From Candidatus Hydrogenedentes bacterium ADurb.Bin170 (GTDB taxonomy: Bacteria; Hydrogenedentota; Hydrogenedentia; Hydrogenedentales; CAITNO01), in contig MWCY01000002.1 of NCBI GenBank assembly GCA_002070275.1, forward strand, positions 11,820-75,819: DNA of 64,000 bases, read 5' to 3'. The translations under genes and the position numbers were made by a program. The notes beneath the pieces were generated by a model. It made no database searches, had not been told where the DNA came from, and was given only the letters and a program-made list of their open reading frames with translations. Positions 5,796 to 27,280 of the stretch are shown here, one piece after another; position 1 is the stretch's first letter, and each line of letters begins with the position of its first letter.

Positions 5796-6761
5796 TTAAA
5801 GAAGATCGCCGGCAAGCAGCAGCGCCCCCACCACTACCACATCTTCCTCAAGCTCACAGGCTACAAGCTGCACTGTATCGTTAAAAGGCGCAAAAATGCG
5901 GGCAGAGAGCGCCGAACGCAGCGGCTTCAGCAGCACATCGCCCATAAGCGCCACACCACCGCCAAGAGCGATACGTTCCGGATGAAGCAGGGTCACCACA
6001 TTACCGAGAGCCATGGCTGCAGCTTCCGCCACATGCCCGATCTCATCCAAAGCAGCCTGATCCCCTGCCTGTGCCGCCTGTGCCAGCATGGGGCAGCTCA
6101 AAGGAGCGGCATCGCCGTCGCATAATACATGAAGCGGGCTTCCCGGTTCCGGCAGCATCGTGCCGCGTATGCGCCTTTCAATTGCCCAGCCAGAACATAG
6201 ATTTTCAAGCTTATCCGCCGCGCCCGGTTGGGCAGATGTCCAGTCCGGAACCCAGGTATGCCCTATTTCACAGGCACCGAGGCCCTGTCCGTCGTACAGT
6301 TTCCCGTCAACAATCAGTGCACCGCCGATACCGCTGCCTATGTTCATGTACACAAACGTACGGGTTCCCCGTCCAGCACCGCAGCAATATTCAGCCCAGC
6401 CTGCCGCATTGGCATCATTGGCTACAGCCACGGGCAGGTGAAACCATTCTTCAAAACAGTGTTTCAGCGGCGCATTCTGCCAGCCTTCTATCTGGTGCGA
6501 TACAAGCACTCTTCCCGTGCTGCTTTCCACGGGACCGCCGAAACCGACCCCTATTGCCTGCACGGCTTCTTTTGCTGAAGCCAGCGCCAGCAGTTCGCCG
6601 CACTGCTCCCGCATCCATCGGAGAATACCTTCCGCACCGGCTTCCGGATTCACCTGACCGCGCCGACGCTCGAGAATCGTGCCGTCGGACAGCCCCAGAA
6701 CCGCCTGCAGCTTGGTGCCGCCGATTTCAACTGCCATGAGAGATTTCTTTTGGTGATTCAT
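5796..6761 (-). CDS. ROK family sugar kinase (glucokinase-like)
   Basis: MAVEIGGTKLQAV.. N-terminal ATPase motif, GVGFGGPV, ROK-like CxxGHxW region. GGAAGGA SD 7 nt upstream of ATG 6761. ATGA overlap with the upstream gene stop (6758-6761). Confidence 0.7.
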   Translation of the reverse strand: MNHQKKSLMAVEIGGTKLQAVLGLSDGTILERRRGQVNPEAGAEGILRWMREQCGELLALASAKEAVQAIGVGFGGPVESSTGRVLVSHQIEGWQNAPLKHCFEEWFHLPVAVANDANAAGWAEYCCGAGRGTRTFVYMNIGSGIGGALIVDGKLYDGQGLGACEIGHTWVPDWTSAQPGAADKLENLCSGWAIERRIRGTMLPEPGSPLHVLCDGDAAPLSCPMLAQAAQAGDQAALDEIGHVAEAAAMALGNVVTLLHPERIALGGGVALMGDVLLKPLRSALSARIFAPFNDTVQLVACELEEDVVVVGALLLAGDLL

Positions 6762-9573: not shown

Positions 9574-12216
9574 GTGTCCGTTCAGGGACTTCCGGAAGTC
9601 ATGTCTACTGCTTCCACAGGATGCTTCATGTTTTTCACTTCTTTGTTTCTACTTTTCGGGAACAGCCTCATGTTTGCCACTACTCAGGATCTCATGTTCA
9701 GTCCCGCTTTTTACGAAACAGGTACTGGATGCATCTGGACACGTCCGCATTCCGAACTTCTTTCCATGGATGAATGGTTCCTCGCCGGACCTGCTCCCGG
9801 AATATACCGTGACGAATGGCTGGAAGCCGCTGCGGACTACCGCGACCAGGTCAGCCAGGGCGGCAAACGATTTTTACTGCTGGACACTGCCCGCGGAGTC
9901 GCCCGTGTACAGCCTTCTTCAGCACTGACCCGGCTGCTGAAACTCCAGCCGGGGGACGAACTTTTTTACTCTTTCCGTGCACGGAGCGGAAAAGAATCTG
10001 TATTTTCTCTAACCCTGGAAGAAATCACCCACGAGCAGGGGTCGCCGGACAACTGGCAGAAGACATTGCAGACACTGCACCTTCCCGGAGACGGGGAATG
10101 GCATGAGCTTTCCTGGTCTGTAAACATCCCTGAAGACGTTCCGGAAACCTGTATCGCAGCCCCTGTCCTGACTCTGATGCCCGGCTCTGACATGTCCGCT
10201 TCCGCGGAAATCGCCGGCATTCTCTTCGGCATCGGTGACACGGAGCGGATGTCCCTGCTGGGGAATCACTTGCGTTTCATGAACAGCACCCATATGTGCC
10301 GGTGCATTTACAACCGTGACGATCTGGAATGGGCAGGCAGTGCCTTTTCCGGTTATTTTCTTTTCGCCTATGACCGCCGGTTCTACACCCCGGAAGAGGG
10401 ATACAAAACCCAGGCACTGATTGAGGATTTTCAGGAACGGCTGGGCGGGGTGGATACTGTAGTCTTCTGGCCTTCTTATCCGCAGCTGGGTGTGGATGAC
10501 CGCAGTCAGTTTGATTTCTTCGACGATATGCCCGGCGGTTTGACGGGGCTGCGGGAGCAGTTCCGTCTGATGCAGGAAAAGGGCATCCGCATTCTCCTGC
10601 CTTTCCTGCCCTGGGACACGGGCACCCGTCGCGAAAATGATGAAGCGGAAAAGCAGCTGATCGCACTCGTTGCGGCTCTGGAAGCGGACGGAATCTTCAT
10701 GGACAGCCTGTCCGGTGCAGAAGACCGGCTCCGGATGGCGACCGACTCGGAAAAACTGGGCGTGGTTTTTGTTCCCGGCGCATGCCCCCCTGTGGAGCAG
10801 GTGAGTGTATGCAATCTGTCCTGGGCGCAAAATGCGGAGTATCCCATTCCTCCGGGAATCCCTTTGCTGAAATGGGTGGAACCACGGCACATGCAGCATT
10901 TCGTGCGCCCTTTCAGCCTGGATCGGCGTGAAGAAATCGAGCAGGCTTTTTTCAACGGATCCGGTCTGATGATCTGGGAAAATGTTTTCGGCTTTGCCAA
11001 TCCTCTGTCCGAAGAGGATGCCGCACTATGGAAACGCTGTGTATCCATTTTGCGAAGCATGCATAAGCCTTTCACATCCTCCCTTTGGGATCCTTTTTTC
11101 CCGTCCCTTCAGGAAGACCTCTATATTCACCGCTGGCCGGGTGCGCCGGGCACTGTCTTCACGCTGATCAATAAAGGGGAGCCTCTGGAATATGTGCCTC
11201 TTATCCGATGGAAACTTCCTGAATCTCTGCGTGCCGATCAGATGGTCGTCTATGATCTGTGGAATGGCGGTACTCTCCGCTGGGATATGAACGAATTCGG
11301 TGCCGTTCAGGTATGGGGCGACGTGGAGCGTCTGGGCTGTATCGCCATCAGTTTTTCGCCTGACGAAAATCTTGAAAATCTGGCGGCACAGCGGAAAAAA
11401 GAACAGCTTCCGGAGGCATCATCCCGCCATCAATACCTCGCACTTCCGCAGCGTCTCGCAGCGCCGGCAGCGAATGCATCTTCAAACACGGGCGGAACAG
11501 ACGGAATGCGGTTTATCTCCGGTGGCGGCATTACGCTGGCAGCGGCAAATCCGGGCAATCCGGCAGATGAGCGTCTGCTTCCTTTACAGAAACAGGCAGA
11601 GGCAGAAACGCATCAGGTCAATCCTTTTTATATGGACGAAGCACAGGTCAGCAACGGAGCGTTCCAAGTGTTTCTTCAGGAAACGGGATATCATCCTGAA
11701 AATGATCAGAATTTCCTGAAACATTGGGGCGGCCGTTCCATGCCGGATGCGCTGGCGGATCTTCCTGTCGTCTATGTTTCCCTCGAAGATGCCCGGGCAT
11801 ATGCAGCCTGGGCGGGCAAACGCCTTCCGACGGAAGAAGAATGGCAGGCAGCCGCTCAGGGAGAGGACGGACGCTGCTGGCCGTGGGGCAACGATTTCAG
11901 CAGTCAGCACTGCGCTCCGGCGGGTACAGCACCTGCATCGGTTCGCAGTTGTGCGTCAGGCAGAAGCCCTTACGGCATGTACCATATGACCGGCAATGTG
12001 CGCGAATGGACGGAAAGCGAATACAGCGACGGAATCACCCGTTTCTGTATACTCCGGGGCGGCTCCTGCTATGAGGCAAAAGGCAGCCGGCGTTATGTTC
12101 CGGGCGGACCGCAGCCGGTAACAGCCCGCACAAAATATCTGCTGATGCATCCCGGCCTCGACCGGTCGTCGCTGATCGGGTTCCGCTGTGCGAAAGATGC
12201 GGTCAGCGCCGGCTGA
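9574..12216 (+). CDS. Large two-domain protein: glycoside-hydrolase-like TIM-barrel region plus C-terminal FGE-sulfatase (SUMF1-like) domain
   Basis: Hydrophobic N-terminus. Middle region with GH-like blocks (VVFWPSYPQLGVDDRSQFDFFDD...GIRILLPFLPWDTG...ADGIFMDS). C-terminal approximately 280 aa with the FGE/SUMF1 pattern (PVVYVSLEDARAYAAWAGKRLPTEEEW...GNVREWTES...RGGS...GFRCAKD). Confidence 0.6.
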   Translation: MSVQGLPEVMSTASTGCFMFFTSLFLLFGNSLMFATTQDLMFSPAFYETGTGCIWTRPHSELLSMDEWFLAGPAPGIYRDEWLEAAADYRDQVSQGGKRFLLLDTARGVARVQPSSALTRLLKLQPGDELFYSFRARSGKESVFSLTLEEITHEQGSPDNWQKTLQTLHLPGDGEWHELSWSVNIPEDVPETCIAAPVLTLMPGSDMSASAEIAGILFGIGDTERMSLLGNHLRFMNSTHMCRCIYNRDDLEWAGSAFSGYFLFAYDRRFYTPEEGYKTQALIEDFQERLGGVDTVVFWPSYPQLGVDDRSQFDFFDDMPGGLTGLREQFRLMQEKGIRILLPFLPWDTGTRRENDEAEKQLIALVAALEADGIFMDSLSGAEDRLRMATDSEKLGVVFVPGACPPVEQVSVCNLSWAQNAEYPIPPGIPLLKWVEPRHMQHFVRPFSLDRREEIEQAFFNGSGLMIWENVFGFANPLSEEDAALWKRCVSILRSMHKPFTSSLWDPFFPSLQEDLYIHRWPGAPGTVFTLINKGEPLEYVPLIRWKLPESLRADQMVVYDLWNGGTLRWDMNEFGAVQVWGDVERLGCIAISFSPDENLENLAAQRKKEQLPEASSRHQYLALPQRLAAPAANASSNTGGTDGMRFISGGGITLAAANPGNPADERLLPLQKQAEAETHQVNPFYMDEAQVSNGAFQVFLQETGYHPENDQNFLKHWGGRSMPDALADLPVVYVSLEDARAYAAWAGKRLPTEEEWQAAAQGEDGRCWPWGNDFSSQHCAPAGTAPASVRSCASGRSPYGMYHMTGNVREWTESEYSDGITRFCILRGGSCYEAKGSRRYVPGGPQPVTARTKYLLMHPGLDRSSLIGFRCAKDAVSAG

Positions 12217-12306
12217 AGAAGGAAAATTTTCCGAGCGCAACGCTCTCCGACGGCTTGTAATTTTTACAATTTGACTGCTACACTCTTCAACAATGGAGGA
12301 CACACC

Positions 12307-13284
12307 GTGAACGTGCAGAAAGCTGTAATTACCGCCGCCGGTCGTGGAGTCCGGCTGTTTCCCGTAGCAGATACCGTGCAGAAAGGCATGCTGCCGCTGC
12401 AGGACAGAGACGGTCTGGTCAAACCTGTGATTCAGATCATCATCGAGGAAGCGCTGGAAAGCGGCATAGAAGAACTGTGTATTGTCTGTGCTCCAGGGGA
12501 CGAAAGCCGCTATAGGCAACAAATGCAGCAGATCCGCGACAATCTCCTGGAAGGCTACTCAGGGGAGCAGTGGGCGCAGCAGCAGGCGGCAAGGCTGGAA
12601 GTTATCCTGAACAAACTGTCTTTTGCCGTTCAGGAAGAGGCGCTGGGCTACGGTCATGCGGTTTACTGCGCCAAAGACTTTGCAGGGGATGCTCCTTTTC
12701 TGCTGCTGCTCGGCGATCACCTTTATGTCTCTCATCTTGAAGGGAAACGCTGTGCTCAGCAGCTGCTGGCGCTGGCTGCACAGGAACAATGTGCCGTTGC
12801 GGCAGTTAACCCCACGAGAGAACATCTCGTCGGCAATTACGGTACAGTCAGCGGTAAGCGCGTCCCTGCCATGCCCGGCGTGTACACCCTTGAAAAGATC
12901 ATCGAAAAACCCTCAGTCAGCCTGGCGGAATCAGTTCTGCAAACCCCCGGTCTCCGGGCAGGTCATTATCTGTGCTTTTTCGGGATGCATGTACTCACAC
13001 CGGGGATTTTCCCCCTTATTGAAGAAGAAATGGCGCAGTCGAAACGCAGCAACAGCAGCTGCCAGCTGACTCCGGCTCTTCAGGCGCTGGCATTGCGGGA
13101 GAAGTATCTGGCTACAGAGGTTCAGGGAAGTCGCTATGATATCGGCGCCCGCTACGGACTGCTTCTGGCTCAAATGGCGCTGGGACTCGCCGGACAGGAT
13201 CGGGACGTCATGCTCTCCGATGTTGTGTCTCTTCTGGCGGAATGTCGCTGCAACAGCAGCCCTTCGATGGAAAGACAGGTATGA
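12307..13284 (+). CDS. Sugar-1-phosphate nucleotidyltransferase (GalU/UTP-glucose-1-phosphate uridylyltransferase-like)
   Basis: KAVITAAGRGVRLFPVADTVQKGMLPL matches the GalU-type (A)VIPAAGLGTRFLP..K.MLP motif. Probable GTG start at 12307 with GGAGGA SD 7 nt upstream. The longer ATG ORF begins at 12271. Confidence 0.65.
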   Translation: MNVQKAVITAAGRGVRLFPVADTVQKGMLPLQDRDGLVKPVIQIIIEEALESGIEELCIVCAPGDESRYRQQMQQIRDNLLEGYSGEQWAQQQAARLEVILNKLSFAVQEEALGYGHAVYCAKDFAGDAPFLLLLGDHLYVSHLEGKRCAQQLLALAAQEQCAVAAVNPTREHLVGNYGTVSGKRVPAMPGVYTLEKIIEKPSVSLAESVLQTPGLRAGHYLCFFGMHVLTPGIFPLIEEEMAQSKRSNSSCQLTPALQALALREKYLATEVQGSRYDIGARYGLLLAQMALGLAGQDRDVMLSDVVSLLAECRCNSSPSMERQV

Positions 13285-16200
13285 ACGCTTTTATCGAGAC
13301 CATCACCAGCCGTGACGAAGTTCTGCGCAACCGCCCCTTTCGCACCCTGTGCGCCGGCAGAAATTCTGCTGAACTTCTGGCGGCGGCACGGGAACTGGAA
13401 GCCTTCCGGCAGTCTTCAGAAAATCTTTACGAGCGGGTGCGGGCATCTCTTTTTCTCTACGCCCTTCACCGTTTTTACCTGAGTGAATCGGCAGACTTCC
13501 CCGCTTCGGGCACACTCCCGCCTTCCGGTTTCTATGATCTCATGGAGCGACGTTTTGAAGAAGCACTTGCCTGCTTCTGGAAAGAGGTGAATGAGCAGGG
13601 CGCTACAGGAGCACTTTGCAGTGCGCTGGCGGAAAGCTATCACCATCTCTCTTTTGACACGCTGAGCGATCAGGTGCGGCGCAGCGTGCGCTCGAGCCGT
13701 GGCAATCAGTGGATGTTCCGGGTCGGTCACCCTGCAGAACATCCCCTCCGCTGTCGCCCTGAGCTGCAGCGCCGAGCCTCAGGAGAAAGCCTCTACCCTG
13801 TCCTTGTTGAGCGGACACCAGTCCGGCTGGATCTAAGCCACAGCGGATGGTCCGACATTTTCTTTCTCGGCATGGACTACCCTGAAGGGGCACGCGTGCT
13901 CAATATCAGCGTGGATCTGGGCGTATACGGTCGCGACAGCAGCACCCGCCCTCCGGTACAGGCCTATGTCCGGGTCATCACCGAACCGGTTCTTCGCATC
14001 ACCAGTCTTGATCTGGGAACAAGCAAAGACATCCGGGATCTGGGTGATCTCTTCAATTTCGGTAATGACTATCTGAGCCTTTTAAAAGCCGGGATCATCG
14101 CCTCCGGCTTTATCCCGCCTTCTTTTGAAGGCACGGACATACCTCTGGCCGGGATTCTGGGTGAGGTTATCCGCCCCGGCATGGGAATGGAACTTGTCAC
14201 TCAGGTGAACGATATCCCCAAAGGATCCCGCCTCGCTGTTTCCACAAACCTGCTCGCCTGTGTCATTGCGCTGCTCATGCGCGCCACCGGCCAAACACAG
14301 TCCCTCACAGGTTCACTTACAGAAGAGGAACGGCGCCTTGCCGCATCCCGAGCCATTCTGGGCGAATGGCTGGGCGCTTCAGGCGGAGGCTGGCAGGATT
14401 CAGGCGGCATATGGCCGGGCATCAAAGTGATCCGCGGCGCCCTTGCGGGAGAATCCGATCCTGAACACGGTATAAGCAAGGGGCGGCTCCTGCCTGAGCA
14501 TCAGATTCTGGGCGATCAGGATCTGCATCCGGACATTACCGAACGGCTGGCGGCATCGCTCGTGTTAATTCACGGCGGCATGGCGCAGAACGTAGGACCC
14601 ATTCTTGAAATGGTTACCGAAAAATATCTGCTCCGCTCCCAGCCCGAATGGGACGCCCGCCTGCGGATGGACAAGATTTTCAACGGCATCCGCAGTGCCC
14701 TGAAAACAGGAGACATTAAAGCGCTGGGCGCCTGCACCACACAAAACTGGAATGATCCGCTCAAAACCATTATCCCCTGGGTCAGCAATCATTTCACGGA
14801 AAGCATCATCAGCCGCGCACGGGCGGCACTTGGGGACGATTTCTGGGGCTTTCTCATGCTGGGCGGCATGTCCGGCGGCGGTATGTGCATGATGGTGGCG
14901 CCTGAACGGCGGGAAGCCTTCCGTGACATTATTCTTGACATCATGCAGTCAACAAAAGAGGAGCTGGAAGAAGCCCTGCCCTTTGCCATGAATCCTGTCG
15001 TCTATGATTTTACGATCAACAATCAGGGAACACAGGCGGCGCTGCTGACCGGAGAAGAAGCACTGCTTCCCATGTCCTATCACATACTGCTCACCCCGGA
15101 TCTTGCCCGAAACTGCCCGGAGAATCTCCCGTTGCAGCGGCGGATAGAACTGGATTGCGCCATCGCCGCCTGCCCAGAACCGGATAAACGGGATCAATTG
15201 CTTCGAACACTTGTGGGCAGCCTGTTCCGTGTAGGAGATGCGCTGTCACGAAGCGAGAAGAACCAATGGGACGAAGAAGCGGAAGCGATCAAGGCACAGA
15301 ACGGCTTTGACAGCATTCAGCATGAAATGATCCGGGATGATCTGCGGGGGGGCCGCATCGGGCTTTCCCGGAACCGCCTGCCCGCCGATACGCTCATCGA
15401 AGATGTTCAGGATCAGGATATCCTATTTCTTAAAGCCGATGCCCGAAGCAGACAGTCGGGCGAAGAAGCGCTCAGAGCGGGCACCGTTGCTGTGCTGTCC
15501 CTGGCTGCCGGCGTAGGCAGCCGCTGGACAACAGGTGCTGGCGTAATCAAAGCAATCAACCCCTTTATTTTTATGGCAGGCAGGCATCGCAGCTTTCTGG
15601 AACTCCATCTGGCAAAAACACGGGAAAGCATGCAGCGGTACAGCTGCGTAATCCCTCATATAGTGTCCACCAGTTTTCTCACCCATGGGCCTGTCGTAAA
15701 GCATCTGGAGCAACAGAAACGCTATCAGCATCCAGGCCCCCTTTACCTGTCGCCGGGCAGATCCATCGGACAGCGTTTTGTGCCTATGGTGCGGGATCTT
15801 CTTTTTCTCTGGGAAGAAACGACTCAGGAAAGCCTGGATGAACAGAAACAGAAGGTGCGCGATGCCGTCCGGGCAGCACTGATCGACTGGGCGAAAGCCA
15901 AAGGGGAAGGAACGGACTATACGGACAACCTGCCTATCCAGCGGTTTAATCCGCCCGGCCACTGGTACGAGGTCCCCAATCTGCTGCTGAACGGCGTACT
16001 GGCGCAGTTGCTGCAGGATCAGCCTCAGATCAAAACCCTCCTGCTGCACAATATCGACACGCTCGGTGCCGATCTGGATGCAACTGCTCTGGGCATGCAT
16101 CTTCTGTCGGGCAATGCGCTCAGCTTTGAGGTTACACCCCGGCGTATTGCGGATCGGGGCGGCGGTCTTGCGCGGGTAAACGGAAGACTCAGGCTGCTGG

Positions 16201-16616
16201 AAGGGCTGGCACAGCCCCGGGAAGAAGATGAACTCCGGCTGCGCTTCTACAATACGATGACCACCTGGATCGATGTCGATGCGCTATTGCAGCAGTTCGG
16301 GCTGGTGCGCGAAGATTTATGCCGGTCACGGGATAAAGTCGCTCAGGCTGTACGCATGATGGCAAGGCGCATGCCCAGTTATGTCACGATTAAAGATGTG
16401 AAACGACGCTGGGGCCGCGGGCAGGAAGATGTTTACCCGGTTGCTCAGGTGGAAAAACTCTGGAGCGACATGAGCGCACTCCCCGACCTGTCCTGCGGTT
16501 ATATGGTTGTGCCCCGCTTCAGAGGCCAGCAGCTGAAAGATCTGAACCAGCTCGACGCCTGGGCAAATGACGGAAGCAAGGACTGGATCGCCCGCCTTTG
16601 CGGACTTCAGGGCTGA
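13281..16616 (+). CDS. Bifunctional fucokinase-type GHMP sugar kinase / UDPGP-family (UGPase-like) nucleotide-sugar pyrophosphorylase fusion (1112 aa)
   Basis: GGWSD-like fucokinase motif (LDLSHSGWSDIFF). GHMP motif-II-like PKGSRLAVSTNLLACVIAL. GHMP C-terminal-like region (..GGMSGGGMCMMV..). C-terminal domain with the UDPGP blocks (LSLAAGVGSRW..; LLHNIDTLGADLD, cf. NIDNLGA of UGPases). ATG 13281 overlaps the upstream stop (ATGA). Confidence 0.55.
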   Translation: MNAFIETITSRDEVLRNRPFRTLCAGRNSAELLAAARELEAFRQSSENLYERVRASLFLYALHRFYLSESADFPASGTLPPSGFYDLMERRFEEALACFWKEVNEQGATGALCSALAESYHHLSFDTLSDQVRRSVRSSRGNQWMFRVGHPAEHPLRCRPELQRRASGESLYPVLVERTPVRLDLSHSGWSDIFFLGMDYPEGARVLNISVDLGVYGRDSSTRPPVQAYVRVITEPVLRITSLDLGTSKDIRDLGDLFNFGNDYLSLLKAGIIASGFIPPSFEGTDIPLAGILGEVIRPGMGMELVTQVNDIPKGSRLAVSTNLLACVIALLMRATGQTQSLTGSLTEEERRLAASRAILGEWLGASGGGWQDSGGIWPGIKVIRGALAGESDPEHGISKGRLLPEHQILGDQDLHPDITERLAASLVLIHGGMAQNVGPILEMVTEKYLLRSQPEWDARLRMDKIFNGIRSALKTGDIKALGACTTQNWNDPLKTIIPWVSNHFTESIISRARAALGDDFWGFLMLGGMSGGGMCMMVAPERREAFRDIILDIMQSTKEELEEALPFAMNPVVYDFTINNQGTQAALLTGEEALLPMSYHILLTPDLARNCPENLPLQRRIELDCAIAACPEPDKRDQLLRTLVGSLFRVGDALSRSEKNQWDEEAEAIKAQNGFDSIQHEMIRDDLRGGRIGLSRNRLPADTLIEDVQDQDILFLKADARSRQSGEEALRAGTVAVLSLAAGVGSRWTTGAGVIKAINPFIFMAGRHRSFLELHLAKTRESMQRYSCVIPHIVSTSFLTHGPVVKHLEQQKRYQHPGPLYLSPGRSIGQRFVPMVRDLLFLWEETTQESLDEQKQKVRDAVRAALIDWAKAKGEGTDYTDNLPIQRFNPPGHWYEVPNLLLNGVLAQLLQDQPQIKTLLLHNIDTLGADLDATALGMHLLSGNALSFEVTPRRIADRGGGLARVNGRLRLLEGLAQPREEDELRLRFYNTMTTWIDVDALLQQFGLVREDLCRSRDKVAQAVRMMARRMPSYVTIKDVKRRWGRGQEDVYPVAQVEKLWSDMSALPDLSCGYMVVPRFRGQQLKDLNQLDAWANDGSKDWIARLCGLQG

Positions 16617-16699: not shown

Positions 16700-19177
16700 A
16701 TGCTACCTGCCTTTATGAATCCATCTTTCAAAGAAAAATACGCCCGAGTGCCCGCCTCGCCTCTGCTGTGGTTTTTTCTTCTCTGCGCCTTCCATTTTTC
16801 CTTTAATATATGGTGGCTCCATGCCGACCGCCACGCCATCAGCACAGACGAAGAAACTCATATGATTATGGCGCGGGACTACTACACCGCACTGTTTCTT
16901 CCGCCCGGCAATGAAAGTATCAGCGCCCGTTTTGAAGCACTGCGACATATCCGCGCTGATGTGGGCAATCCGGTACACCCGCCGCTGCTTCATCTTGCCG
17001 GTGCCTTTCTGGCAAAAATCCTGGGCTACGGAATAGACCGCATCGCTTTTGCCAACACCTTGGCATTTCTTCTGTCACTGGCAGGCTTTTATCTGCTGAT
17101 GGGCTCGTTTCTCTCGCAAAAAAACACGCTTTTTGCCGTCACTGTCTTCAGCATGACGCCCATGGTTTACATGGCATCCCGTTATTTCATGACAGACTTT
17201 CTTTCCATGGCGCTTGTGATCTGGGTGCTTTACACGCTGTGGAAATCAGACGGCTACGCCCGTATCGGCTGGACTGTGCTTTTCGGCATCTGCAACGGAC
17301 TCGCCCTGCTGACACGGACAACGGCAGTACTTTATTATGCGTTGCCCTGTTTTCTTGTCGGATGCTTCGGCGTGTACCGTATTTTTCAGGAAAGCTCCGG
17401 TTTCGCCAGTCGCTGGAAGGAGCTGATGAAAATGAGTGCCCGCATGGCACTGGCGGCAGGCATCACGCTGCTTCTTGCGGCACCCTGGTACATCATGCAC
17501 GGGGAACAGTTCTACCAGCACTGGATGAAGCCGCAGGCTGTCCACGAGGAAACGCCGCTATCTATCCTCCGGAAAACAGCACCGCCTCCGCAGCAGACAG
17601 CCGCTGCATCGAAAACAGAAGCGACGGCATCCGCAGCGGATGGTCAGAAAGAAAACAGCAGCCCGAAAGGGGAAACTGGAAAAGCCGGATGGCGCCTGCG
17701 TCTGCACAGACGTATCCCCTGGACACGCTACCCGGTTTTTGTCATCAACAACGCTGTTTTTTTGCCCATGTTTCTTTTAAGCCTAGCCGGCATGATCTGT
17801 GCCTGCTGCAGCGGTGCTTTCATAAAACGAAAAGAAATCTGGCTGCTCCTGAGCTGGCTGTGGGGTTCCTATGTTCTCCTCACACTGCTGCTCAGTTTTT
17901 CCACACCGCGTTACGCTTTGCAGGCACTGCCCGCCCTTGCGTTTTTTTCCGCCCTCCCCTTCTTCCTGATTCAGGGAGGCAAACTTCGGCGGACACTGCA
18001 GGGGGTATATCTGGCACTGCTTCTCTTTCAATTTGTCACCCTGTCTGTTCACGCCTTTTCGCCGCTTCCCGAACTCAAACTGCCCCTTCAGCCGGATCCG
18101 GAATTTCAGGCTGTCTATGATGATCCGGGTCTGTACATCTATAAATCCGTGCTCCATGCGTCAAGCGCCTACGGCCGCATGCAGGCACCTATGCAGGACA
18201 ATTTCAAAGACCGGATTTTTGAAGCCATGCTGCAGAACGAGCAGAAACAACCCTATTTCGGGGTGGAAGCTCCTTATGCCCGCCTCAACATGAGAGGCAT
18301 GCTCTTTGAGGAGCAGCATTACTGGCTTGACAGCTCCCGCCCCAATCCTTTCCGGCGTACCGACATTCCGGCTGATCTGGAACCCTATCGCAACTTCCGA
18401 CATTACGGCTGGGGAAGAGACATGGAGGAAATACAACCCATACTTCCCATGGTGGACTATGTTGTCTACACGACGGAAGATATCAGCGAGGCAAAGGAGC
18501 AGGAATGGCTTCACATTCTCGACAGCCACGACTTTGATCTCATTGAACGCTTTTTCGAAGCGCGTTTCGGACAGGTTGGCGCACGTTATTATGCAGTGGC
18601 GGCACGCCGGGAAATCCGTCCCCTGCCGGAAATTAAAACACAGGCAGACATTGCCGCTCTGCCTCTGGAAGCTCTGTACCGTTTCCGCCATTCGGGCAAG
18701 TGGCGGCTCCTTTCGCCCCCTCTTCAGAATATGCTGGAGCAGCGCATACAAGCACTCTTTGAAGCCCGTGGAAAAGGCGTTACTCTCAATGACACCGTCA
18801 CGTTTCTTGGGGCCACTGCATCCCGGGCATCTGAGGATCGCTACATCCTGAACCTGATGTTTAAATCAAATGATCCGCCTCCGCTCAGCTGCCGGCTGCT
18901 GCTGCAGGGCGTCGTGTCGCCTGAGGATATGGCAGTTCATTTTGGAACGCCGGGTGAAAAGTACGGTCAATTCCGGTGGTCTTTCGAACCCAGCCCGTCA
19001 CTTGTCTTCTGGCCCGAACAGGGGCATGTGCTGGTACGCTTCCCCTTTTCCGCCAGGCCCATACCTTACGAGCTGAGCCTTGCCTTTTTTCTGCCAGGAA
19101 AAGGACTGTGGGATCGGGCGGTCAATCTCGGATCAGTGGACTTCAGTAAAGTACCCGATGAAAATGCAACCCGGTAA
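16700..19177 (+). CDS. GT-C fold glycosyltransferase, ArnT/PMT-like (GT83/GT39-type) with large C-terminal extracytoplasmic domain
   Basis: Multi-TM N-terminal half with an acidic first-loop motif (HADRHAISTDEETHMIMARDYY) and ArnT/PMT-like helices. Approximately 380-aa soluble C-terminal region. No STT3 WWDYG motif seen. Start set at ATG 16700 (GGAG upstream). The long ORF from 16598 overlaps the upstream gene. Confidence 0.6.
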   Translation: MLPAFMNPSFKEKYARVPASPLLWFFLLCAFHFSFNIWWLHADRHAISTDEETHMIMARDYYTALFLPPGNESISARFEALRHIRADVGNPVHPPLLHLAGAFLAKILGYGIDRIAFANTLAFLLSLAGFYLLMGSFLSQKNTLFAVTVFSMTPMVYMASRYFMTDFLSMALVIWVLYTLWKSDGYARIGWTVLFGICNGLALLTRTTAVLYYALPCFLVGCFGVYRIFQESSGFASRWKELMKMSARMALAAGITLLLAAPWYIMHGEQFYQHWMKPQAVHEETPLSILRKTAPPPQQTAAASKTEATASAADGQKENSSPKGETGKAGWRLRLHRRIPWTRYPVFVINNAVFLPMFLLSLAGMICACCSGAFIKRKEIWLLLSWLWGSYVLLTLLLSFSTPRYALQALPALAFFSALPFFLIQGGKLRRTLQGVYLALLLFQFVTLSVHAFSPLPELKLPLQPDPEFQAVYDDPGLYIYKSVLHASSAYGRMQAPMQDNFKDRIFEAMLQNEQKQPYFGVEAPYARLNMRGMLFEEQHYWLDSSRPNPFRRTDIPADLEPYRNFRHYGWGRDMEEIQPILPMVDYVVYTTEDISEAKEQEWLHILDSHDFDLIERFFEARFGQVGARYYAVAARREIRPLPEIKTQADIAALPLEALYRFRHSGKWRLLSPPLQNMLEQRIQALFEARGKGVTLNDTVTFLGATASRASEDRYILNLMFKSNDPPPLSCRLLLQGVVSPEDMAVHFGTPGEKYGQFRWSFEPSPSLVFWPEQGHVLVRFPFSARPIPYELSLAFFLPGKGLWDRAVNLGSVDFSKVPDENATR

Positions 19178-19195
19178 TTGCGAAAGGCACCCTGC

Positions 19196-20698
19196 ATGAC
19201 AGTATCTGCCCGTCGACAGCCTGCCTCCGACAACGATCCGGATTTTCGCCGCCTTGTTCGCGGTGCATTTCTGTCAGCGATCAGCATTCTGATTTCCATG
19301 GCGGCTTTGCTGATTACAGGCAAACTGTTCACCAATGCCCTCGATCAGGAACAGGTGGGCATCTTCGCACTGCTGCTGGTCTGTTCGGATTTCATCATTT
19401 ATGCCGCCGGGCTGGGCTTTGCCGCATCCATGCCCAAACTGATAGCGGCAGCCGGACAGGAAGACCGGAAAAAGATCATTGCCTCCGCACTTGCCGGTCA
19501 ACTGATGCTGCTTTGTGCTGTCAGTGCAGCGGTGTTGCTCCTTCAGGCAGGAATCACGCATCCTGAACGCATATCCACGCATCGGGGGTGGCTGGCTGTT
19601 CACGGCGGGCTGCATCTGCTGCCGCTGCTGTTTGTGACAGGCTGCCTGCGCGATCTGATCCTCGCCATGCTTGCCGGACTCAACCGCTATGGCTGGAGAG
19701 CAGGAGGCATCACGCTGGCTTCCCTGACACAGGTGGCGGCTGTATGGGTATTCATATGGCAGGGAGGCGGCGGGCTCACAGCTCTGGTGATCGCACTGGC
19801 AGCCTCTTATGCATTGGCGCTGGCGCTTCTCTGGATCGGACTGGGATCTGCCGCCGTGCCCCGTTTCTCACAGCGCCATTACAGAGAAGCCGTCTTGTTC
19901 AGTGCTCCCTTGTATCTGAATCAGGTCATGAATTTCTTCCACCAGCGCTTCGATACGGTTCTTGTTTCTCTTCTGGCAGGCGTAGGCTATGGTGCTGTTT
20001 ATGAAATGCTGAAACGCATCCCTCTTATTGTAAACCGCACCCTGAATGCGCTGCTAGTGCCCTATCTCCCCCACATCTCCCGGCTGATTGCCCGGGAAGA
20101 CCGCACGCAGGCAGCAAAGGTACTCAATGAAGCGGCAGCGCTTTCCGCCTTCATCGGCTATGGTGCGGCACTTTTCTTTACTGCACTGCAGACAACGCTA
20201 ATCCCCTTTCTGTTTAATAAGGAATATCTTACCGGCAGCACAACACTCTTTCTGCTGCTGCTTGCCGCCAGTCTGGCACTTCAATCCGGCGTGATGGCGC
20301 AAATGCTTATCGCCCTGGGACGCAATCTTTCCGTTCCGATCGTAAACATGAGTACAATGGCACTCTGCCTTTTTCTGGATCTGCTGCTGATCCCCCGGTG
20401 GGGTCTGGCGGGAGCGGCGGGTGCTGCCGCTTTTTCTTCCGGCTGCAGTTATGCGCTGATGGTCTTTTGGGCACGGTACAATGGCATCCGCATCTCCCTG
20501 CGCAGCTGTGCACTGCCTCTGCTCTTGCTTTCCATCAGCGCTTTGTCGTTATATTATGAGATGCAGAACGCACTGTTCCGGCTGCTGCCGCCTGTACTTT
20601 TTACCGTGCTGTGTCTGATGACCGGTGTTACATCTCCCGGTCGCCTCCACGCCATTACAAAGGCACTGCTTCCGGGCAGCTTCTCTGCATCAGACTGA
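19196..20698 (+). CDS. Polysaccharide/oligosaccharide flippase, Wzx-like (MOP superfamily)
   Basis: Approximately 12-14 predicted TM helices, basic N-terminus, overall pattern of RfbX/Wzx polysaccharide biosynthesis proteins. The listed ORF start 19178 is a TTG. The first ATG is at 19196. Confidence 0.55.
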   Translation: MTVSARRQPASDNDPDFRRLVRGAFLSAISILISMAALLITGKLFTNALDQEQVGIFALLLVCSDFIIYAAGLGFAASMPKLIAAAGQEDRKKIIASALAGQLMLLCAVSAAVLLLQAGITHPERISTHRGWLAVHGGLHLLPLLFVTGCLRDLILAMLAGLNRYGWRAGGITLASLTQVAAVWVFIWQGGGGLTALVIALAASYALALALLWIGLGSAAVPRFSQRHYREAVLFSAPLYLNQVMNFFHQRFDTVLVSLLAGVGYGAVYEMLKRIPLIVNRTLNALLVPYLPHISRLIAREDRTQAAKVLNEAAALSAFIGYGAALFFTALQTTLIPFLFNKEYLTGSTTLFLLLLAASLALQSGVMAQMLIALGRNLSVPIVNMSTMALCLFLDLLLIPRWGLAGAAGAAAFSSGCSYALMVFWARYNGIRISLRSCALPLLLLSISALSLYYEMQNALFRLLPPVLFTVLCLMTGVTSPGRLHAITKALLPGSFSASD

Positions 20699-20737: not shown

Positions 20738-21814
20738 ATGACACAATCACCCTGTCGCATCATTAACGCCACGGCACCCATCCGCATCTGTGATCTGGGC
20801 GGATGGACAGACACGTGGTTTTCAGGGCACGGAAGTATCCTGAACATAGGCGTCTATCCCTATGCGGAAGCCCAGCTCTTTGTCCGTCCCGGAGACCGGC
20901 CGGGCAAACGGGAAGTAATGATTCATGCCGAGAATTTCGGCGAGCGCTATGCCTTGCCCACGCCAATCGAATACGACAAGCATCCTCTTCTGGAGGCATG
21001 TCTGGATATCATGGAACTTCCCGACAACCTGGATTTTGAGGTCAATCTCTTTTCCATCGCTCCGCCGGGCTGTTCCACAGGCACTTCCGCCGCCATCAGC
21101 GTCGCTTTGCTGGGTGCGCTGGATCTGCTTACACCGGGACGCATGACACCGCATGAAATCGCTTTGCTTGCCCAGCGTGTGGAAACAGAAAAACTCGGAC
21201 TCCAGTGCGGTATACAGGATCAGCTCTGTTCCGCCTATGGCGGCATCTGCTACATTGACATGTACGAATACCCCAACGCCTCTGTATCCCAGTTGTGGGT
21301 ACCCAACCGGATCTGGTGGGAGCTGGAAAGGCGGCTGGTACTTGTTTATCTGGGCAGATCCCATTCGTCAAGTGAAGTGCACGGGAAAGTCATTGCAGGT
21401 TTTGAAGCGGCGAACTCCGATAAAAGCGCTCTGGAACCGCTTCGGCGTGCGGCAACAGCAGCAAAAGATGCGCTGTATCAGGGCGATTTTCTTGCATTCG
21501 GCAAGGCGATGAAGGACAACACGGAAGCACAGCGCAACCTGCATCCAGCTCTGATCTCGGCTGAAGCCGAAGCGGTTATCGATCTTGCCCGGAAGCATGG
21601 AGCACTGGGCTGGAAGATCAACGGTGCAGGCGGTCAGGGCGGCTCAGTCACTATTTTGTGCGGCCCGGAAAACACAGGCAAGCGGAATTTTATTAAAGAA
21701 CTTTCATCAATCAATCCTGCCTTTGAAGCACTTCCTATTTATCTGTCACGTTTCGGACTTCGCCAATGGAAAAGCCCCATGCAGGATCAGTCTTCTTTTT
21801 CAGGATCATCATGA
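20738..21814 (+). CDS. GHMP family sugar kinase (fucokinase/HddA-like)
   Basis: N-terminal ..APIRICDLGGWTDTWF.. (GGWSDTP-type motif of fucokinase/heptose kinase subfamily). GHMP motif II PPGCSTGTSAAISVALLGAL. AGAGGAG SD upstream. Confidence 0.65.
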   Translation: MTQSPCRIINATAPIRICDLGGWTDTWFSGHGSILNIGVYPYAEAQLFVRPGDRPGKREVMIHAENFGERYALPTPIEYDKHPLLEACLDIMELPDNLDFEVNLFSIAPPGCSTGTSAAISVALLGALDLLTPGRMTPHEIALLAQRVETEKLGLQCGIQDQLCSAYGGICYIDMYEYPNASVSQLWVPNRIWWELERRLVLVYLGRSHSSSEVHGKVIAGFEAANSDKSALEPLRRAATAAKDALYQGDFLAFGKAMKDNTEAQRNLHPALISAEAEAVIDLARKHGALGWKINGAGGQGGSVTILCGPENTGKRNFIKELSSINPAFEALPIYLSRFGLRQWKSPMQDQSSFSGSS

Positions 21815-23800: not shown

Positions 23801-26800
23801 CTATTGCAGGTGCGGCAGCACGACCTGACCTTCAGCCTGTGCCACCAGATCGTGATAGGCACCATAAAAAACGCTGTTCCCGTCTATCCACAGAGTAATA
23901 CGGCGCAGCTCTTCGGGTGAAAGTGCCACACCGTAATGCCCCGCTTCCAGGAGAGCCAGCAGAGGCGAAGCGTGGGCACCTACTTGACCCGGAATATTAT
24001 AGGATGTTTTATTGCGCTTCAGTCCGATCCCATTTCCACCGTGACGTACCCAGACGAAAGGCCGAAGCGACTCGAAGGCCTGAGACCATCCGTAGGCACC
24101 TCCCGCCTCCCTTCCGAATTTCGGCGCCTCTTTTTCCCGGGCATGGCAGTCAGCACAGTGCCTGTCCAGTACAGGCTGCACCAGACGGGAAAATTGGAGC
24201 GGCCAGGAACCGTCCGCTTCCGCTTTCAGTTTATCCGGTGCCCGTCGCAGGGCAAGAGGCAGCCGCTTGGGCACTGCCGGAGACTGTCGGACCGGCTCAT
24301 GGCAGCCGGCACAGGACAGATGTTCGCCCGGATGCAGATAGGTTGCGGAACTCATGGTCTGCACTGCCATACCCCGTTCATCCAGTGCCTGAAAATAGAA
24401 AGGTACCCCCGCCGGTGCCATGAAATGAGCGCTTCCGTCTTCCTCTACAGGCACGGTACCCAGCACGCCCCGCGCCACCGATTCATCACCGGCACCGATA
24501 TTCGGTTTTTCCGGAGCCGGCGTTGATTTCGGAAACATCTGTATGAGGCGGAGCTCTTTAATTCTGGTGTTTTCCGGCCACTCCCGGCGGGTCTCGTATA
24601 TATTCATCACTGAAATCACACCTGTCGGCGGCTCAGCCTGCGCAACTGTTTCATAATGTGTCTGCACGGGAATAATCGGCGGCCTCGGCCGTGCACGGAA
24701 AGGAATGGGAGTGGAACAGCCTATGCTGTCATCCCGGTACAGAATTTCCCGGTTGCCGAAGGAGTCGACAAGATATAAATCATGCTTGCTCTGGTCAGGA
24801 TCATACACAGCGAGATAAAAGTCTTCGCTCAGAGGCCAGGGCGTCCCGTACACCTGCCCGTCACCGCCGCCGCCCTGAGGACTTCGGGGTACCCCCGGCG
24901 CCGACTCCGCTTCCGGAAATTTAGCTTCCGGCGTTACACGTCTGATCTGTCCTGTGGATTGATCATCTTCAAGGTGAAGATCAATAGTAATGATGGAGCC
25001 GAAGAACTGGCCGTGATGCGTGGCGGCAGTTGCAGCGTATTTGTGCGAGCCGGGAATGGCACGAAGAGACATTTCCATCCACGGACGTGATTCCCGGACA
25101 GCCGGGTAATTGCCGTGGGGGCCGCGCGGGTCTCTGCCGTCCGGATAGACAAGCCACAGATGATGGGCAATGTCGCTGTCCCGATCCACGTAATCCCAGC
25201 GGGTATACACGACCATGCCGTTATTATCCACACTGGGCAGCCATTCATGGGTCTCGTGATAGCTGAAGGGCAGAATTTCTTTCAGGGCACTGTCCATCTG
25301 AAAAAGCGTATAGGTGGGGCACACGCGTCCGCAGCGCAGAAATCCGCCTCTCCGCTCAGAAGTAAACACAATGCGGCCGTCGGGAAGCCAGCAGGGATGC
25401 ATGTCATTCCAGGGCCCGTCAGTCAGCTGGGTCAGCCCTGTGCCGTCCGCATTCACACTGAATAAATGATAGGCCCTGCCTGGATCCCAGGGCTCTTTCC
25501 AGTAATTTGCCTGATCTTCTCTGTGGTACTTGTGGCGCTTGTCGCCGCGGCATTCCACATAGGCAAAAAGAATCCGGGTGCCGTCAAAAGAAAGATCCGG
25601 AGATAGGAAGGCACCGCCTCCCGCATCGGCTCCCTCCGTCAGCAGCCCTTCACCGTCATAATAAAGATCCGGTGCCGCCGTGCCACCGTGCAGCTTTTCA
25701 CCTGCCAGCCTTCCCGATTCAACAACGGAATCGGCAAGCAGATCTTTTGTGACAGGAGCATCGGTAAACGCATTTTCCAGAACAAATAGTCCGCCGCCGG
25801 GCCGGGCGGCTATGCCGTAGAACTGATCGCACATATGCTCATAAATAGCACGGTGTCTTTTCAGAAACAGGATGCGATCAAAATTCAGCAGCGGATTGGA
25901 AAAAGCAATCTCCCGGCGCAGTGCACACAGACGGTGAAAACAGAGCCGCTCCTCCTGCAGCCCGACAGCCCCCTGCCCTTCTTCAATCTTCGCAACAAGG
26001 GGCGCCAATTCGGAAAGAGCAGCTTCCATGCCGCTGTAATCTCTGTCCGGATAGCGTGCGGACAAATAGTCAAGAAGTGCCCGGGTGCGCCGCCAGACAA
26101 TGCCTGTCGGAGAGCGGTCCGTGTCATGAATCAGCGAATCAGGACGCAGCGCTTCCCGGGCAAGCCGCTCATTATTCCATTCCGGACGGGCAGCAATCTG
26201 CCGCCTCAGTTCTCTGTATTCGGCATCCCGAACCGCACTGAGCGGAAGCGTCTCTCTCGCACCGGGAAATTCCGCAATGATCACGACATTATCATCAAAC
26301 TGCGGAATATAGATCCGGTTCTCGTGCCACGCCGTCCCGATATCAGCAGGCGATTGAAGCGTATGCAGTGTGCGGACACTCTTCCGGTCTGCTGTAATGA
26401 TACAAATTTTGTTGCCGACAAAATCCGAGACGATAAAGTCACCGGAAGGGGTGACTTCTATGCCGTCCAGGTTGGTGAAATGTTCGGCAAGGCCGAAAGG
26501 CACCGGAGCATTCTGTCCGGCAGGATCCACCTCATAGATTTCATGAAGTGTCCAGGAAACGGCGTACAGTTTTTCCCCGTGAACAGTAACACCATTCACG
26601 CCCTCAATTTCTCCCACAAGGGCATGATTGCCCGCCCCACTGATATCCACCCGCCAGATGTGCCCCTTTTCGACATCAGACACATAAACAGCACCATCGC
26701 CCGCAGCCATGTCGTTCAGCCTGCCCGCCCCTGCCGGTGCATAACTTTTTCTGAAGGATCCGTCGGCGAGAGAATAAGCAACAACACGACGGTTGTCTGC

Positions 26801-27130
26801 TGCATAAAGAACTCCGTTGAGGATTGCCATGCCTTTGGGCTGATGCAACGGAAATGCCTCAGTGCTTTCCACCCATTTCAACTGATCAAGTTTTCCGTCA
26901 GGGCTGATTCGGGAAATGAAGCCGGCCCCCGTATCTGTCCAGTATCCTTCAGGTGCCGACGCAATATTCGATACATAGGCGAAGCCTGTTTCGGGATCTG
27001 CAACAACACATTCCGGTGTGGAAAATCCGTGAATAGCGTGCAAAGGCTGCAGTTCCTGTGCCGGAAGCCCGGCGGACAACAGAAGGAAACAAAGGGAAAA
27101 GGACAAAGACAGGAACGCTGAAGAACGCAT
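23801..27130 (-). CDS. Large secreted multi-domain protein: N-terminal NHL/SMP-30-like beta-propeller, central PD40-like repeats, C-terminal putative di-heme c-type cytochrome region
   Basis: Signal peptide MRSSAFLSLSFSLCFLLLSAGLPAQE (start 27130). PD40-like blocks (WLPDGRIVFTSERRG..; VYPDGRDPRG). Two CxxCH motifs near the C-terminus (LSCAGCHEP; DRHCADCHAREKE). Confidence 0.5.
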   Translation of the reverse strand: MRSSAFLSLSFSLCFLLLSAGLPAQELQPLHAIHGFSTPECVVADPETGFAYVSNIASAPEGYWTDTGAGFISRISPDGKLDQLKWVESTEAFPLHQPKGMAILNGVLYAADNRRVVAYSLADGSFRKSYAPAGAGRLNDMAAGDGAVYVSDVEKGHIWRVDISGAGNHALVGEIEGVNGVTVHGEKLYAVSWTLHEIYEVDPAGQNAPVPFGLAEHFTNLDGIEVTPSGDFIVSDFVGNKICIITADRKSVRTLHTLQSPADIGTAWHENRIYIPQFDDNVVIIAEFPGARETLPLSAVRDAEYRELRRQIAARPEWNNERLAREALRPDSLIHDTDRSPTGIVWRRTRALLDYLSARYPDRDYSGMEAALSELAPLVAKIEEGQGAVGLQEERLCFHRLCALRREIAFSNPLLNFDRILFLKRHRAIYEHMCDQFYGIAARPGGGLFVLENAFTDAPVTKDLLADSVVESGRLAGEKLHGGTAAPDLYYDGEGLLTEGADAGGGAFLSPDLSFDGTRILFAYVECRGDKRHKYHREDQANYWKEPWDPGRAYHLFSVNADGTGLTQLTDGPWNDMHPCWLPDGRIVFTSERRGGFLRCGRVCPTYTLFQMDSALKEILPFSYHETHEWLPSVDNNGMVVYTRWDYVDRDSDIAHHLWLVYPDGRDPRGPHGNYPAVRESRPWMEMSLRAIPGSHKYAATAATHHGQFFGSIITIDLHLEDDQSTGQIRRVTPEAKFPEAESAPGVPRSPQGGGGDGQVYGTPWPLSEDFYLAVYDPDQSKHDLYLVDSFGNREILYRDDSIGCSTPIPFRARPRPPIIPVQTHYETVAQAEPPTGVISVMNIYETRREWPENTRIKELRLIQMFPKSTPAPEKPNIGAGDESVARGVLGTVPVEEDGSAHFMAPAGVPFYFQALDERGMAVQTMSSATYLHPGEHLSCAGCHEPVRQSPAVPKRLPLALRRAPDKLKAEADGSWPLQFSRLVQPVLDRHCADCHAREKEAPKFGREAGGAYGWSQAFESLRPFVWVRHGGNGIGLKRNKTSYNIPGQVGAHASPLLALLEAGHYGVALSPEELRRITLWIDGNSVFYGAYHDLVAQAEGQVVLPHLQ

Positions 27131-27280
27131 GGCCGACTCTCCTGAACTTGAATATTTCCGGATCTGAAAAATGAAACGATCCGGTATTTTGGTGCTCATA
27201 TCACTGCTGTGGTATTGTGTAGCTTCTTCCTTTTTTTACGCTGCCATTTTAACAGGAACCTCACGCTGAAAGGAAAAAGC

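Follow-up and report, generated by a model that had tools for sequence, protein, structure and literature searches.

A kinase-first fusion of fucokinase-type and UDP-glucose pyrophosphorylase-type domains, paired with a GalU-like gene, as a candidate bifunctional UDP-sugar-forming enzyme of bacteria

The 64,000-nucleotide stretch of DNA analyzed here (the window; contig MWCY01000002.1 of Candidatus Hydrogenedentes bacterium ADurb.Bin170) carries, on the + strand at positions 13281..16616, an open reading frame (ORF) of 1111 amino acids plus the stop codon that encodes a four-part fusion protein, i.e., a TPR-like helical N-domain, a fucokinase-type GHMP kinase, a helical linker, and a UDPGP domain of the UDP-glucose pyrophosphorylase (UGPase) type. 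Judged from its sequence, this protein is best described as a putative bifunctional sugar-1-kinase/UDP-sugar pyrophosphorylase of reversed domain order, equipped with a TPR-like N-domain and encoded in a two-gene module together with a GalU-like protein. An earlier, sequence-only reading of this DNA had proposed a GHMP kinase of the fucokinase type with a UDPGP pyrophosphorylase of the eukaryotic type behind it, and the Pfam, phmmer, profile and Foldseek searches described below support this proposal at levels that greatly exceed chance. It had also placed the two domains in the reverse of the Fkp/FKGP order, which agrees with our finding that the Fkp model (NCBIfam PRK13412) matches the kinase part alone and that the transferase is C-terminal. 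The limits of the ORF were likewise confirmed, the protein being of 1111 rather than the proposed 1100 amino acids. Beyond that reading, we found that the architecture is very common, that a permuted homologue (P0222) exists, and that a GalU-like partner gene lies almost constantly upstream.

Architecture of the fusion protein

In the mechanical ORF list the frame runs uninterrupted from 13242 to 16616 on the + strand. The biological start is the ATG at 13281 rather than the mechanical one at 13242, as this is where public gene calls place it and where all homologues start, and this ATG overlaps the stop codon of the upstream GalU-like gene by 4 bp (ATGA). A fusion of two adjacent genes created by an error of assembly or gene calling is refuted: the frame is unbroken, an identical protein is present on 22 contigs, 211 full-length homologues were collected from many phyla, complete genomes among them, and the whole chain gives a confident structure model. 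Nothing in this gene points to such an artefact, which affects some database relatives (P0146, P0185 and P0208) only. These three are frameshifted mistranslations of high-GC relatives in public protein collections that mimic novel GalU-like fusions; P0185 and P0208 were considered as triple fusions with the GalU-like protein and rejected as frameshifted junk, and P0146 has the same fault.

The AlphaFold2 (AF2) model of the fusion, built on 21 homologues, is confident, with a predicted local distance difference test score (pLDDT) of 89.2 and a predicted template modeling score (pTM) of 0.88. It consists of helices in residues 1-172, an alpha/beta kinase in residues 173-592, a helical linker in residues 593-690, and a nucleotidyltransferase in residues 691-1111. 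The N-terminal all-helical, TPR-like domain (13281..13796, + strand) is thus shorter than the N-terminal region of about 200 residues that had been estimated from the letters. The fucokinase-type GHMP anomeric sugar kinase domain (13797..15056, + strand) is assigned from sequence, structure and invariant catalytic residues; the linker (15057..15350, + strand) is variable and about 50 amino acids shorter in distant members; and the UGPase-type UDPGP (PF01704) nucleotidyltransferase domain occupies the remainder of the chain (15351..16613, + strand). When the model was compared with the PDB by Foldseek, as the sequence-only reading had advised, the top match was full-length FKP (E 6e-20), with a template modeling (TM) score of 0.83 to the FKP kinase domain (9iip) and of 0.80 to the heptokinase WcbL (4usk), and many structures of UGPases and UAPs were matched with E ~1e-14. 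In the model, the kinase part is predicted to have the GHMP two-domain fold. Since the pTM of 0.88 holds over the entire chain, the four parts probably assemble into one compact particle.

The kinase domain

In a phmmer search against the PDB, the kinase domain of the fusion matched the kinase domain of Bacteroides fragilis FKP (9iip; E 1.6e-12), and a family profile of this domain found FKP at 5.6e-24 and the heptose kinases at about 1e-4. Within the GHMP superfamily, the domain is best placed in the fucokinase/HddA branch (COG2605). The alignment to the Fkp model PRK13412, which covers model positions 609-941, scored 85 bits against a cutoff of 721. In FKP, D762 is the general base, R592 and Mg2+ stabilize the leaving group, S719 and S720 form the metal site, E751 is essential, and W599, D601 and Q761 are sugar ligands (PMC11982464). 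These roles were carried over to the fusion by HMMER alignment, and conservation was measured in a MAFFT alignment of 211 full-length members that share 30-100% identity.

The four motifs quoted in the sequence-only reading (SHSGWSDIFF and PKGSRLAVSTNLLACVIAL in the kinase, LAAGVGSRW and LLHNIDTLGADLD in the transferase) are all present at the expected codons. Kinase motif I, SHSGWSDIFF (aa 186-195; 13836..13865, + strand), contributes W190 and D192, the counterparts of the sugar-binding W599 and D601, and R182, located slightly upstream, corresponds to R592. The variant phosphate-binding motif II (PKGSRLAVST at the start of PKGSRLAVSTNLLACVIAL, aa 313-331; 14217..14273, + strand) provides S321 and T322, equivalent to S719 and S720. 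In the SGGGWQDS block (14379..14402, + strand), Q372 and D373 correspond to Q761 and to the general base D762, and E362, upstream of this block, to E751. R182, D192, S321, T322, E362, Q372 and D373 are invariant (211/211), as are G370 and W371, and W190 is conserved in 206 of the 211 members. GHMP motif III, LGGMSGGGM (14859..14885, + strand), is also invariant in the family alignment.

The sequence-only reading had noted that motif II is degenerate and that the kinase could be divergent or non-catalytic. The family motif, PKGS[R/G]LAVST, indeed departs from the canonical PxGSGLGSSA in that two Gly are replaced (by A319 and V320), and Pfam GHMP_kinases_N gave no match to the fusion while GHMP_kinases_C reached only E 0.089. 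One could then regard the kinase-like domain as a sensor or scaffold without catalytic activity and the protein as a regulated UDP-glucose pyrophosphorylase. We consider this very improbable, because the seven equivalents of the FKP catalytic and metal-binding residues, together with motif III, are invariant at 30-100% identity, and because motif II in its variant form is as constant as one would expect of a functioning site: G315, S316, A319, V320, S321 and T322 vary little or not at all in the 211 sequences. As the two replacing residues A319 and V320 are themselves invariant, motif II reads as a conserved family signature and not as decay, and the active site of the kinase looks functional rather than dead.

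The nucleotidyltransferase domain

The C-terminal domain matched Pfam UDPGP (PF01704) with 50.5 bits against a gathering cutoff of 22, and phmmer searches of the PDB retrieved plant UGPases (E 3e-9). A family profile of this domain found UGPases at 7e-28, the Leishmania UGP at 4e-18, UAPs at 1e-11 to 1e-5, and a USP at 2e-5. The nucleotide-binding loop LAAGVGSRW (aa 741-749, with G744, G746 and R748; 15501..15527, + strand) is followed by LLHNIDTLGADLD (aa 921-933, with N924 and D926; 16041..16079, + strand), which is the counterpart of the NxDNLGA block of UGPases, and the last conserved block is VPRFRGQQLKD (16509..16541, + strand), with R1081 and the invariant K1086, which we take to be the catalytic Lys of UGPases. 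No variation was seen among the 211 members at G744, R748, G893, H894, D958, G960, G961, E974, W996, R1081 and K1086, and next to none at G746, N924, D926 and N991. By these residues, the UDPGP active site also looks functional.

The best sequence matches of this domain are UGPases of the eukaryotic A type (1z90, 2icy and 8c0b; human UGP2, 4r7p), with which it shares the G-rich loop and the PPGH, NxD..LGA, EVTP..D.GG, LLE, (F/Y)NT..W and C-terminal R/K blocks. The identity is about 20%, however, and the domain differs from UGPases by an inserted helical segment of about 40 amino acids (~aa 837-874) that is particular to the family and by its position behind a kinase. The alignment to UGP2 reaches the block of K1086 and stops ~85 residues short of the UGP2 chain end, and the fusion chain itself ends ~25 amino acids past K1086, with two helices in the AF2 model. 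As the chain ends so shortly after the last conserved Lys block, the C-terminal left-handed beta-helix that serves as oligomerization domain in eukaryotic UGPases is missing. The fusion is therefore not a canonical UGPase, being fused and without the beta-helix.

The GalU-like partner gene

Directly upstream lies the gene for a GalU-like NTP_transferase (12307..13284, + strand), a 325-residue protein that begins at the GTG at 12307, preceded by GGAGG (the mechanical ORF starts at the TTG at 12271). It matched Pfam NTP_transferase with E 1.5e-19 and TIGR01099 (galU) with 142 bits, under the equivalog cutoff of 327, and aligned over its full length with YngB/GalU in the PDB (E 7e-31). When the ORFs of 87 loci were called and clustered, the sole broadly shared neighbor family was this GalU-like protein (~316 amino acids), located directly upstream on the same strand. 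By tblastn the partner was found upstream in 78 of 81 loci, and two of the three misses were contig ends. The gap between both genes is mostly below 50 bp, and in 14 loci they overlap by 4 bp. A putative replacement of the partner in 8 loci ('Cluster 2') was discarded as an antisense ORF artefact, since tblastn found the partner there.

The partners, read from the window (12307-13284) and from loci L001 and L007-L086, keep Q109, G114, H117, A118, D137 and E200-K201-P202 in 63 of 63 tallied sequences; of these, Q109 serves the base, D137 the Mg and K201 the sugar phosphate. What has systematically changed is the GLGTR loop, and this pairing of the fusion with a GalU-like protein of altered loop is new here. 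The Thr position of the loop is occupied by Q, E, A, V or L in 62/63 and never by T or S, and its second Gly is kept in 31/63. Two types could be distinguished. Type A (Hydrogenedentota, Bacteroidota and Isosphaeraceae) reads AA[GA]RGxRLYPVADTVQKAMLP, whereas in type B (Verrucomicrobiota, Chloroflexota, Phycisphaerae, Acidobacteriota and Armatimonadota) the second Gly is lost and an 8-residue deletion, present in 33 of the 63, removes a downstream conserved Lys. In Escherichia coli GalU, changes at T20/R21 reduce the activity ~500-fold, and the same positions distinguish the weakly active GalF from GalU (PMC4643126). Read against this mutagenesis, the altered loop most likely marks the partner as an accessory or attenuated subunit and not a second enzyme of full activity. 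It resembles E. coli GalF, an attenuated paralogue of GalU that likewise has a substituted GLGTR loop but retains the sugar-phosphate Lys. The differences are that the partner is only distantly GalU-like, carries two insertions, in one subtype has lost the second conserved Lys, and is paired with a UDPGP-type enzyme instead of GalU.

The partner could also be given a catalytic task. In a catabolic funnel of the Isselbacher type, the kinase and the UDPGP domain would form UDP-sugar and pyrophosphate (PPi), an unlinked epimerase would convert the UDP-sugar into UDP-glucose, and the partner, working in reverse, would turn UDP-glucose and PPi into glucose-1-phosphate and UTP, so that GalT would be replaced and UTP and PPi recycled locally. 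Such a funnel would explain why one kinase is obligately accompanied by two pyrophosphorylases of the uridine type. It is consistent with the retention in the partner of the uracil-reading Q109, together with D137 and K201, and with the finding that in several Bacteroidota the module lies next to SusC/SusD-type loci, of which one includes an amylase. We nevertheless hold it improbable, given that the GLGTR loop of the partner is degraded in the way that is so costly to GalU, that no epimerase was found linked at any locus among the clustered neighbors, and that the kinase is fucokinase-like and not galactokinase-like.

Relationship to known fusions and pathways

The closest known systems are B. 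fragilis FKP (L-fucokinase/GDP-fucose pyrophosphorylase; PDB 9iip, 9iit and 5yys) and plant FKGP, in which a sugar-1-kinase and an NDP-sugar pyrophosphorylase are likewise joined in one chain. The kinase domains of FKP and of the fusion are homologous (21% identity), share the catalytic Arg, Asp, Glu, Gln and Ser as well as the GGGWQD motif, and are both preceded by a helical segment. In Fkp and FKGP, however, the pyrophosphorylase comes first, whereas the fusion begins with the kinase; the transferase of FKP is an NTP_transferase with a beta-helix and of the GTP type, whereas that of the fusion is UDPGP (PF01704), of the UTP type; and the fusion differs further by its motif II, its extra TPR-like N-domain and its obligate GalU-like partner gene. 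Since both the domain order and the transferase family fail to agree, the fusion as read from its sequence is not a member of the Fkp family (PRK13412); it would work like the FKP kinase and a UGPase in series.

In zebrafish GKUP (glucuronokinase/putative pyrophosphorylase; PMC3938481) and in Leishmania AFKP80/FKP40, a GHMP anomeric kinase is also fused to a nucleotidyltransferase for sugar salvage. GKUP carries N-terminally a short nucleotidyltransferase of bacterial type whose activity could not be shown (PMC3938481), so that the order of the fusion is reversed with respect to this enzyme too. The kinase-first order is found in HldE, in which anomeric phosphorylation is also followed by nucleotidylation, but the folds are those of PfkB and a cytidylyltransferase. 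In the GDP-heptose pathway (HddA/WcbL, GmhB and HddC), the kinase WcbL has the same fold, and distant members of the fusion family lie beside GmhA-like and phosphatase genes; the heptose kinases are, however, a much weaker sequence match than FKP, and no phosphatase is linked in the main clade.

Distribution of the family

A database search for the same architecture, which the sequence-only reading had called for, was run at several depths. A word-indexed protein search (clusters at 90% identity) scored at least 8000 homologues, the best 120 of which are nearly all of 1100-1128 amino acids and 65-100% identical, and when the 50% representatives were searched exhaustively, 495 proteins were retrieved at E up to 1e-30. 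In a scan of one genome per species, at least 579 species carried the fusion. They include cultured Cytophagales (Hymenobacter, Spirosoma, Adhaeribacter, Pontibacter, Fibrivirga and Larkinella), the Isosphaeraceae Singulisphaera, Tautonia and Paludisphaera, and, at 54-70% identity, Verrucomicrobiota, Chloroflexota, Acidobacteriota, Armatimonadota and Myxococcota; distant members were found on an archaeal contig (L006) and in Omnitrophota. They are deposited as 'UTP--glucose-1-phosphate uridylyltransferase', 'galactokinase/mevalonate kinase-like predicted kinase' or 'hypothetical'. The suggestion that the architecture is unreported holds to the extent that our literature search found no paper describing it and no characterized member; it does not hold for the sequences, which are present in so many species and deposited under generic names. 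The family is thus abundant and already deposited, yet uncharacterized.

In the circularly permuted homologue P0222 of Candidatus Kaelpia imicola (Omnitrophota; L087, 6001-9741), the UDPGP domain comes first, followed by the N-domain and then the kinase. Hence, the N-domain travels with the kinase, and both domain orders occur in nature. Encoded near P0222 are, among others, a NUDIX protein and a protein of 1064 amino acids that contains an FBPase_2 domain. Other Omnitrophota carry the module within giant proteins that also contain ROK and IMPase domains (P0136, 2318 aa; P0145, 2939 aa, L005 10001-18820; P0133, L089; P0138), and P0145 adjoins a 7976-aa protein with HAD and glycoamylase domains. 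At their N-termini these Omnitrophota proteins have a hydrophobic stretch that resembles a signal or an anchor, an odd feature in an enzyme that uses ATP and UTP. A further relative, P0154 (L090 7001-10909; a 667-kb contig of GCA_033064195.1), has a gene range that is not colinear with the protein, so that an intron is possible; its neighbors include a UQ_con (ubiquitin-conjugating) protein and a 5712-aa protein, and the contig may be eukaryotic or Asgard-like.

Genomic neighborhood

In the window, the module belongs to a same-strand run. The first gene (9574-12216, + strand) encodes a protein of 880 amino acids that has a large unassigned part at its N-terminus and ends in an FGE-sulfatase (formylglycine-generating-enzyme-like) domain; after the partner and the fusion follow a PMT_2-type GT-C glycosyltransferase (16700-19177, + strand), a Wzx-like flippase (19178-20698, + strand), a stand-alone HddA/mevalonate-kinase-like GHMP kinase (20738-21814, + strand; matched best by the HddA heptose-7-phosphate kinase, E 1e-24, and mevalonate kinase, with no match reaching its cutoff), and LipB. 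When the neighbors other than the partner were sought by tblastn in the 81 loci, none recurred outside near-identical genomes, except for a match of the FGE protein in L034. A ROK-family glucokinase-like gene lies ~6.5 kb upstream on the opposite strand (5796-6761, - strand), a linkage that is not conserved at other loci, and 23801-27199 (- strand) encodes a protein of 1132 amino acids that combines PD40 and NHL beta-propeller repeats with a middle domain of the hydrazine-synthase-alpha type (HZS_alpha, E 1e-21).

Elsewhere, the 29%-identity member P0273 (L088 4504-12900) has a beta-PGM-family HAD hydrolase gene overlapping its start, a GmhA-like SIS isomerase upstream, and, after the fusion, a protein of 1190 amino acids in which a GT2 processive synthase is joined to a GH5 cellulase domain. 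In L089, the gene of a UDP-glucose/GDP-mannose-dehydrogenase-domain protein overlaps the fusion gene, and in the archaeal L006 a GT2 lies near it. These glycan-synthesis contexts in independent branches (the window, L088, L089 and L006) fit a supply of UDP-sugar to glycan synthesis. Two other sets of neighbors were set aside: phosphoglycerate kinase, PlsX and other clusters reflect only synteny among four closely related Akkermansiaceae metagenome-assembled genomes, and the SusC/SusD or amylase neighbors at four Bacteroidota loci were too inconsistent to serve as a clue to the substrate.

Discussion

Our preferred reading, to which we give a probability of about 0.6, is that the fusion is a single-chain two-step enzyme that, together with an accessory subunit, converts a sugar via its 1-phosphate into a UDP-sugar and feeds glycan synthesis. 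In the first step, the GHMP domain would phosphorylate the anomeric hydroxyl of the sugar with ATP, D373 acting as general base and R182, S321 and the variant P-loop holding the phosphates and Mg2+. In the second step, the UGPase-type domain would join the sugar-1-phosphate and UTP to give UDP-sugar and PPi, using the G744/G746/R748 loop, D926 and K1086. The TPR-like N-domain and the helical linker would pack both catalytic domains into one compact particle, and the fusion would be co-translated with its GalU-like partner. In the source genome, the product would most likely feed envelope-glycan assembly, as the GT-C and the flippase are encoded downstream.

Several points weigh against this proposal. 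The two-step activity is predicted from sequence and model for every member. A kinase pocket like that of fucokinase is combined here with a transferase whose nearest match is UDP-glucose pyrophosphorylase, which, to our knowledge, corresponds to no known sugar/nucleotide pairing. Pfam GHMP_kinases_N is silent on the fusion, whose motif II departs from the canonical form at two Gly. The partner may be fully active, R, D137 and K201 being kept, and the role that we assign to it is a guess. Furthermore, the glycan genes beside the window copy are not conserved at other loci, and the sugar phosphatases and the ROK kinase that accompany the module in distant branches are a hint of a phosphorylated substrate.

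The last point leads to a pathway that resembles heptose activation, in which the kinase would take a sugar phosphate (such as hexose-6-phosphate or heptose-7-phosphate) to the 1,6- or 1,7-bisphosphate, a separate phosphatase would strip off the distal phosphate before the UDPGP domain formed the UDP-sugar, and phosphomutase would be bypassed. The structural resemblance to WcbL is in line with it, as are the ROK and IMPase domains fused in the distant P0136 and P0145, the HAD hydrolase and the GmhA-like isomerase of L088, and the FBPase_2 neighbor in L087. The profile of the kinase domain, however, matches FKP far better than the heptose kinases, no phosphatase is conserved beside the main clade, the window included, and our reading of the alignments brought to light no invariant basic residue that the family has of its own, in addition to those present in FKP as well. 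We therefore regard this pathway as unlikely, although the recurrence of phosphatases in distant branches keeps it alive.

The two-step reading could also be extended. The partner and the fusion might together make up a single heteromeric machine, found across hundreds of species of bacteria, that operates an undescribed UDP-sugar route with a regulatory or channeling role for the partner. This machine would provide either an entry of a sugar or a sugar-6-phosphate into the UDP-hexose pool that is independent of phosphomutase and GalT, or a UDP-activated L-galacto-type sugar not known in bacteria. We advance this extension tentatively, as rather unlikely. A supply of UDP-glucose to GT3 glycogen synthases was also considered as a role, as these enzymes have a phyletic range similar to that of the fusion family (PMC11046441).

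Nucleotide-sugar supply sets which glycans a cell can build, and FKP, a natural kinase/pyrophosphorylase fusion, is used to make sugar nucleotides. The fusion described here belongs to a large family with two apparently intact active sites and with neither a curated model nor a literature, and it may give a one-protein route from free sugar to UDP-sugar. Its occurrence in the easily grown Hymenobacter, Spirosoma, Pontibacter and Singulisphaera makes direct testing possible. Such work would correct the misleading annotation as "UTP-glucose-1-phosphate uridylyltransferase" that is spread over thousands of entries, and the family may reveal why a GalF-like degenerate pyrophosphorylase is kept alongside the fusion across phyla.

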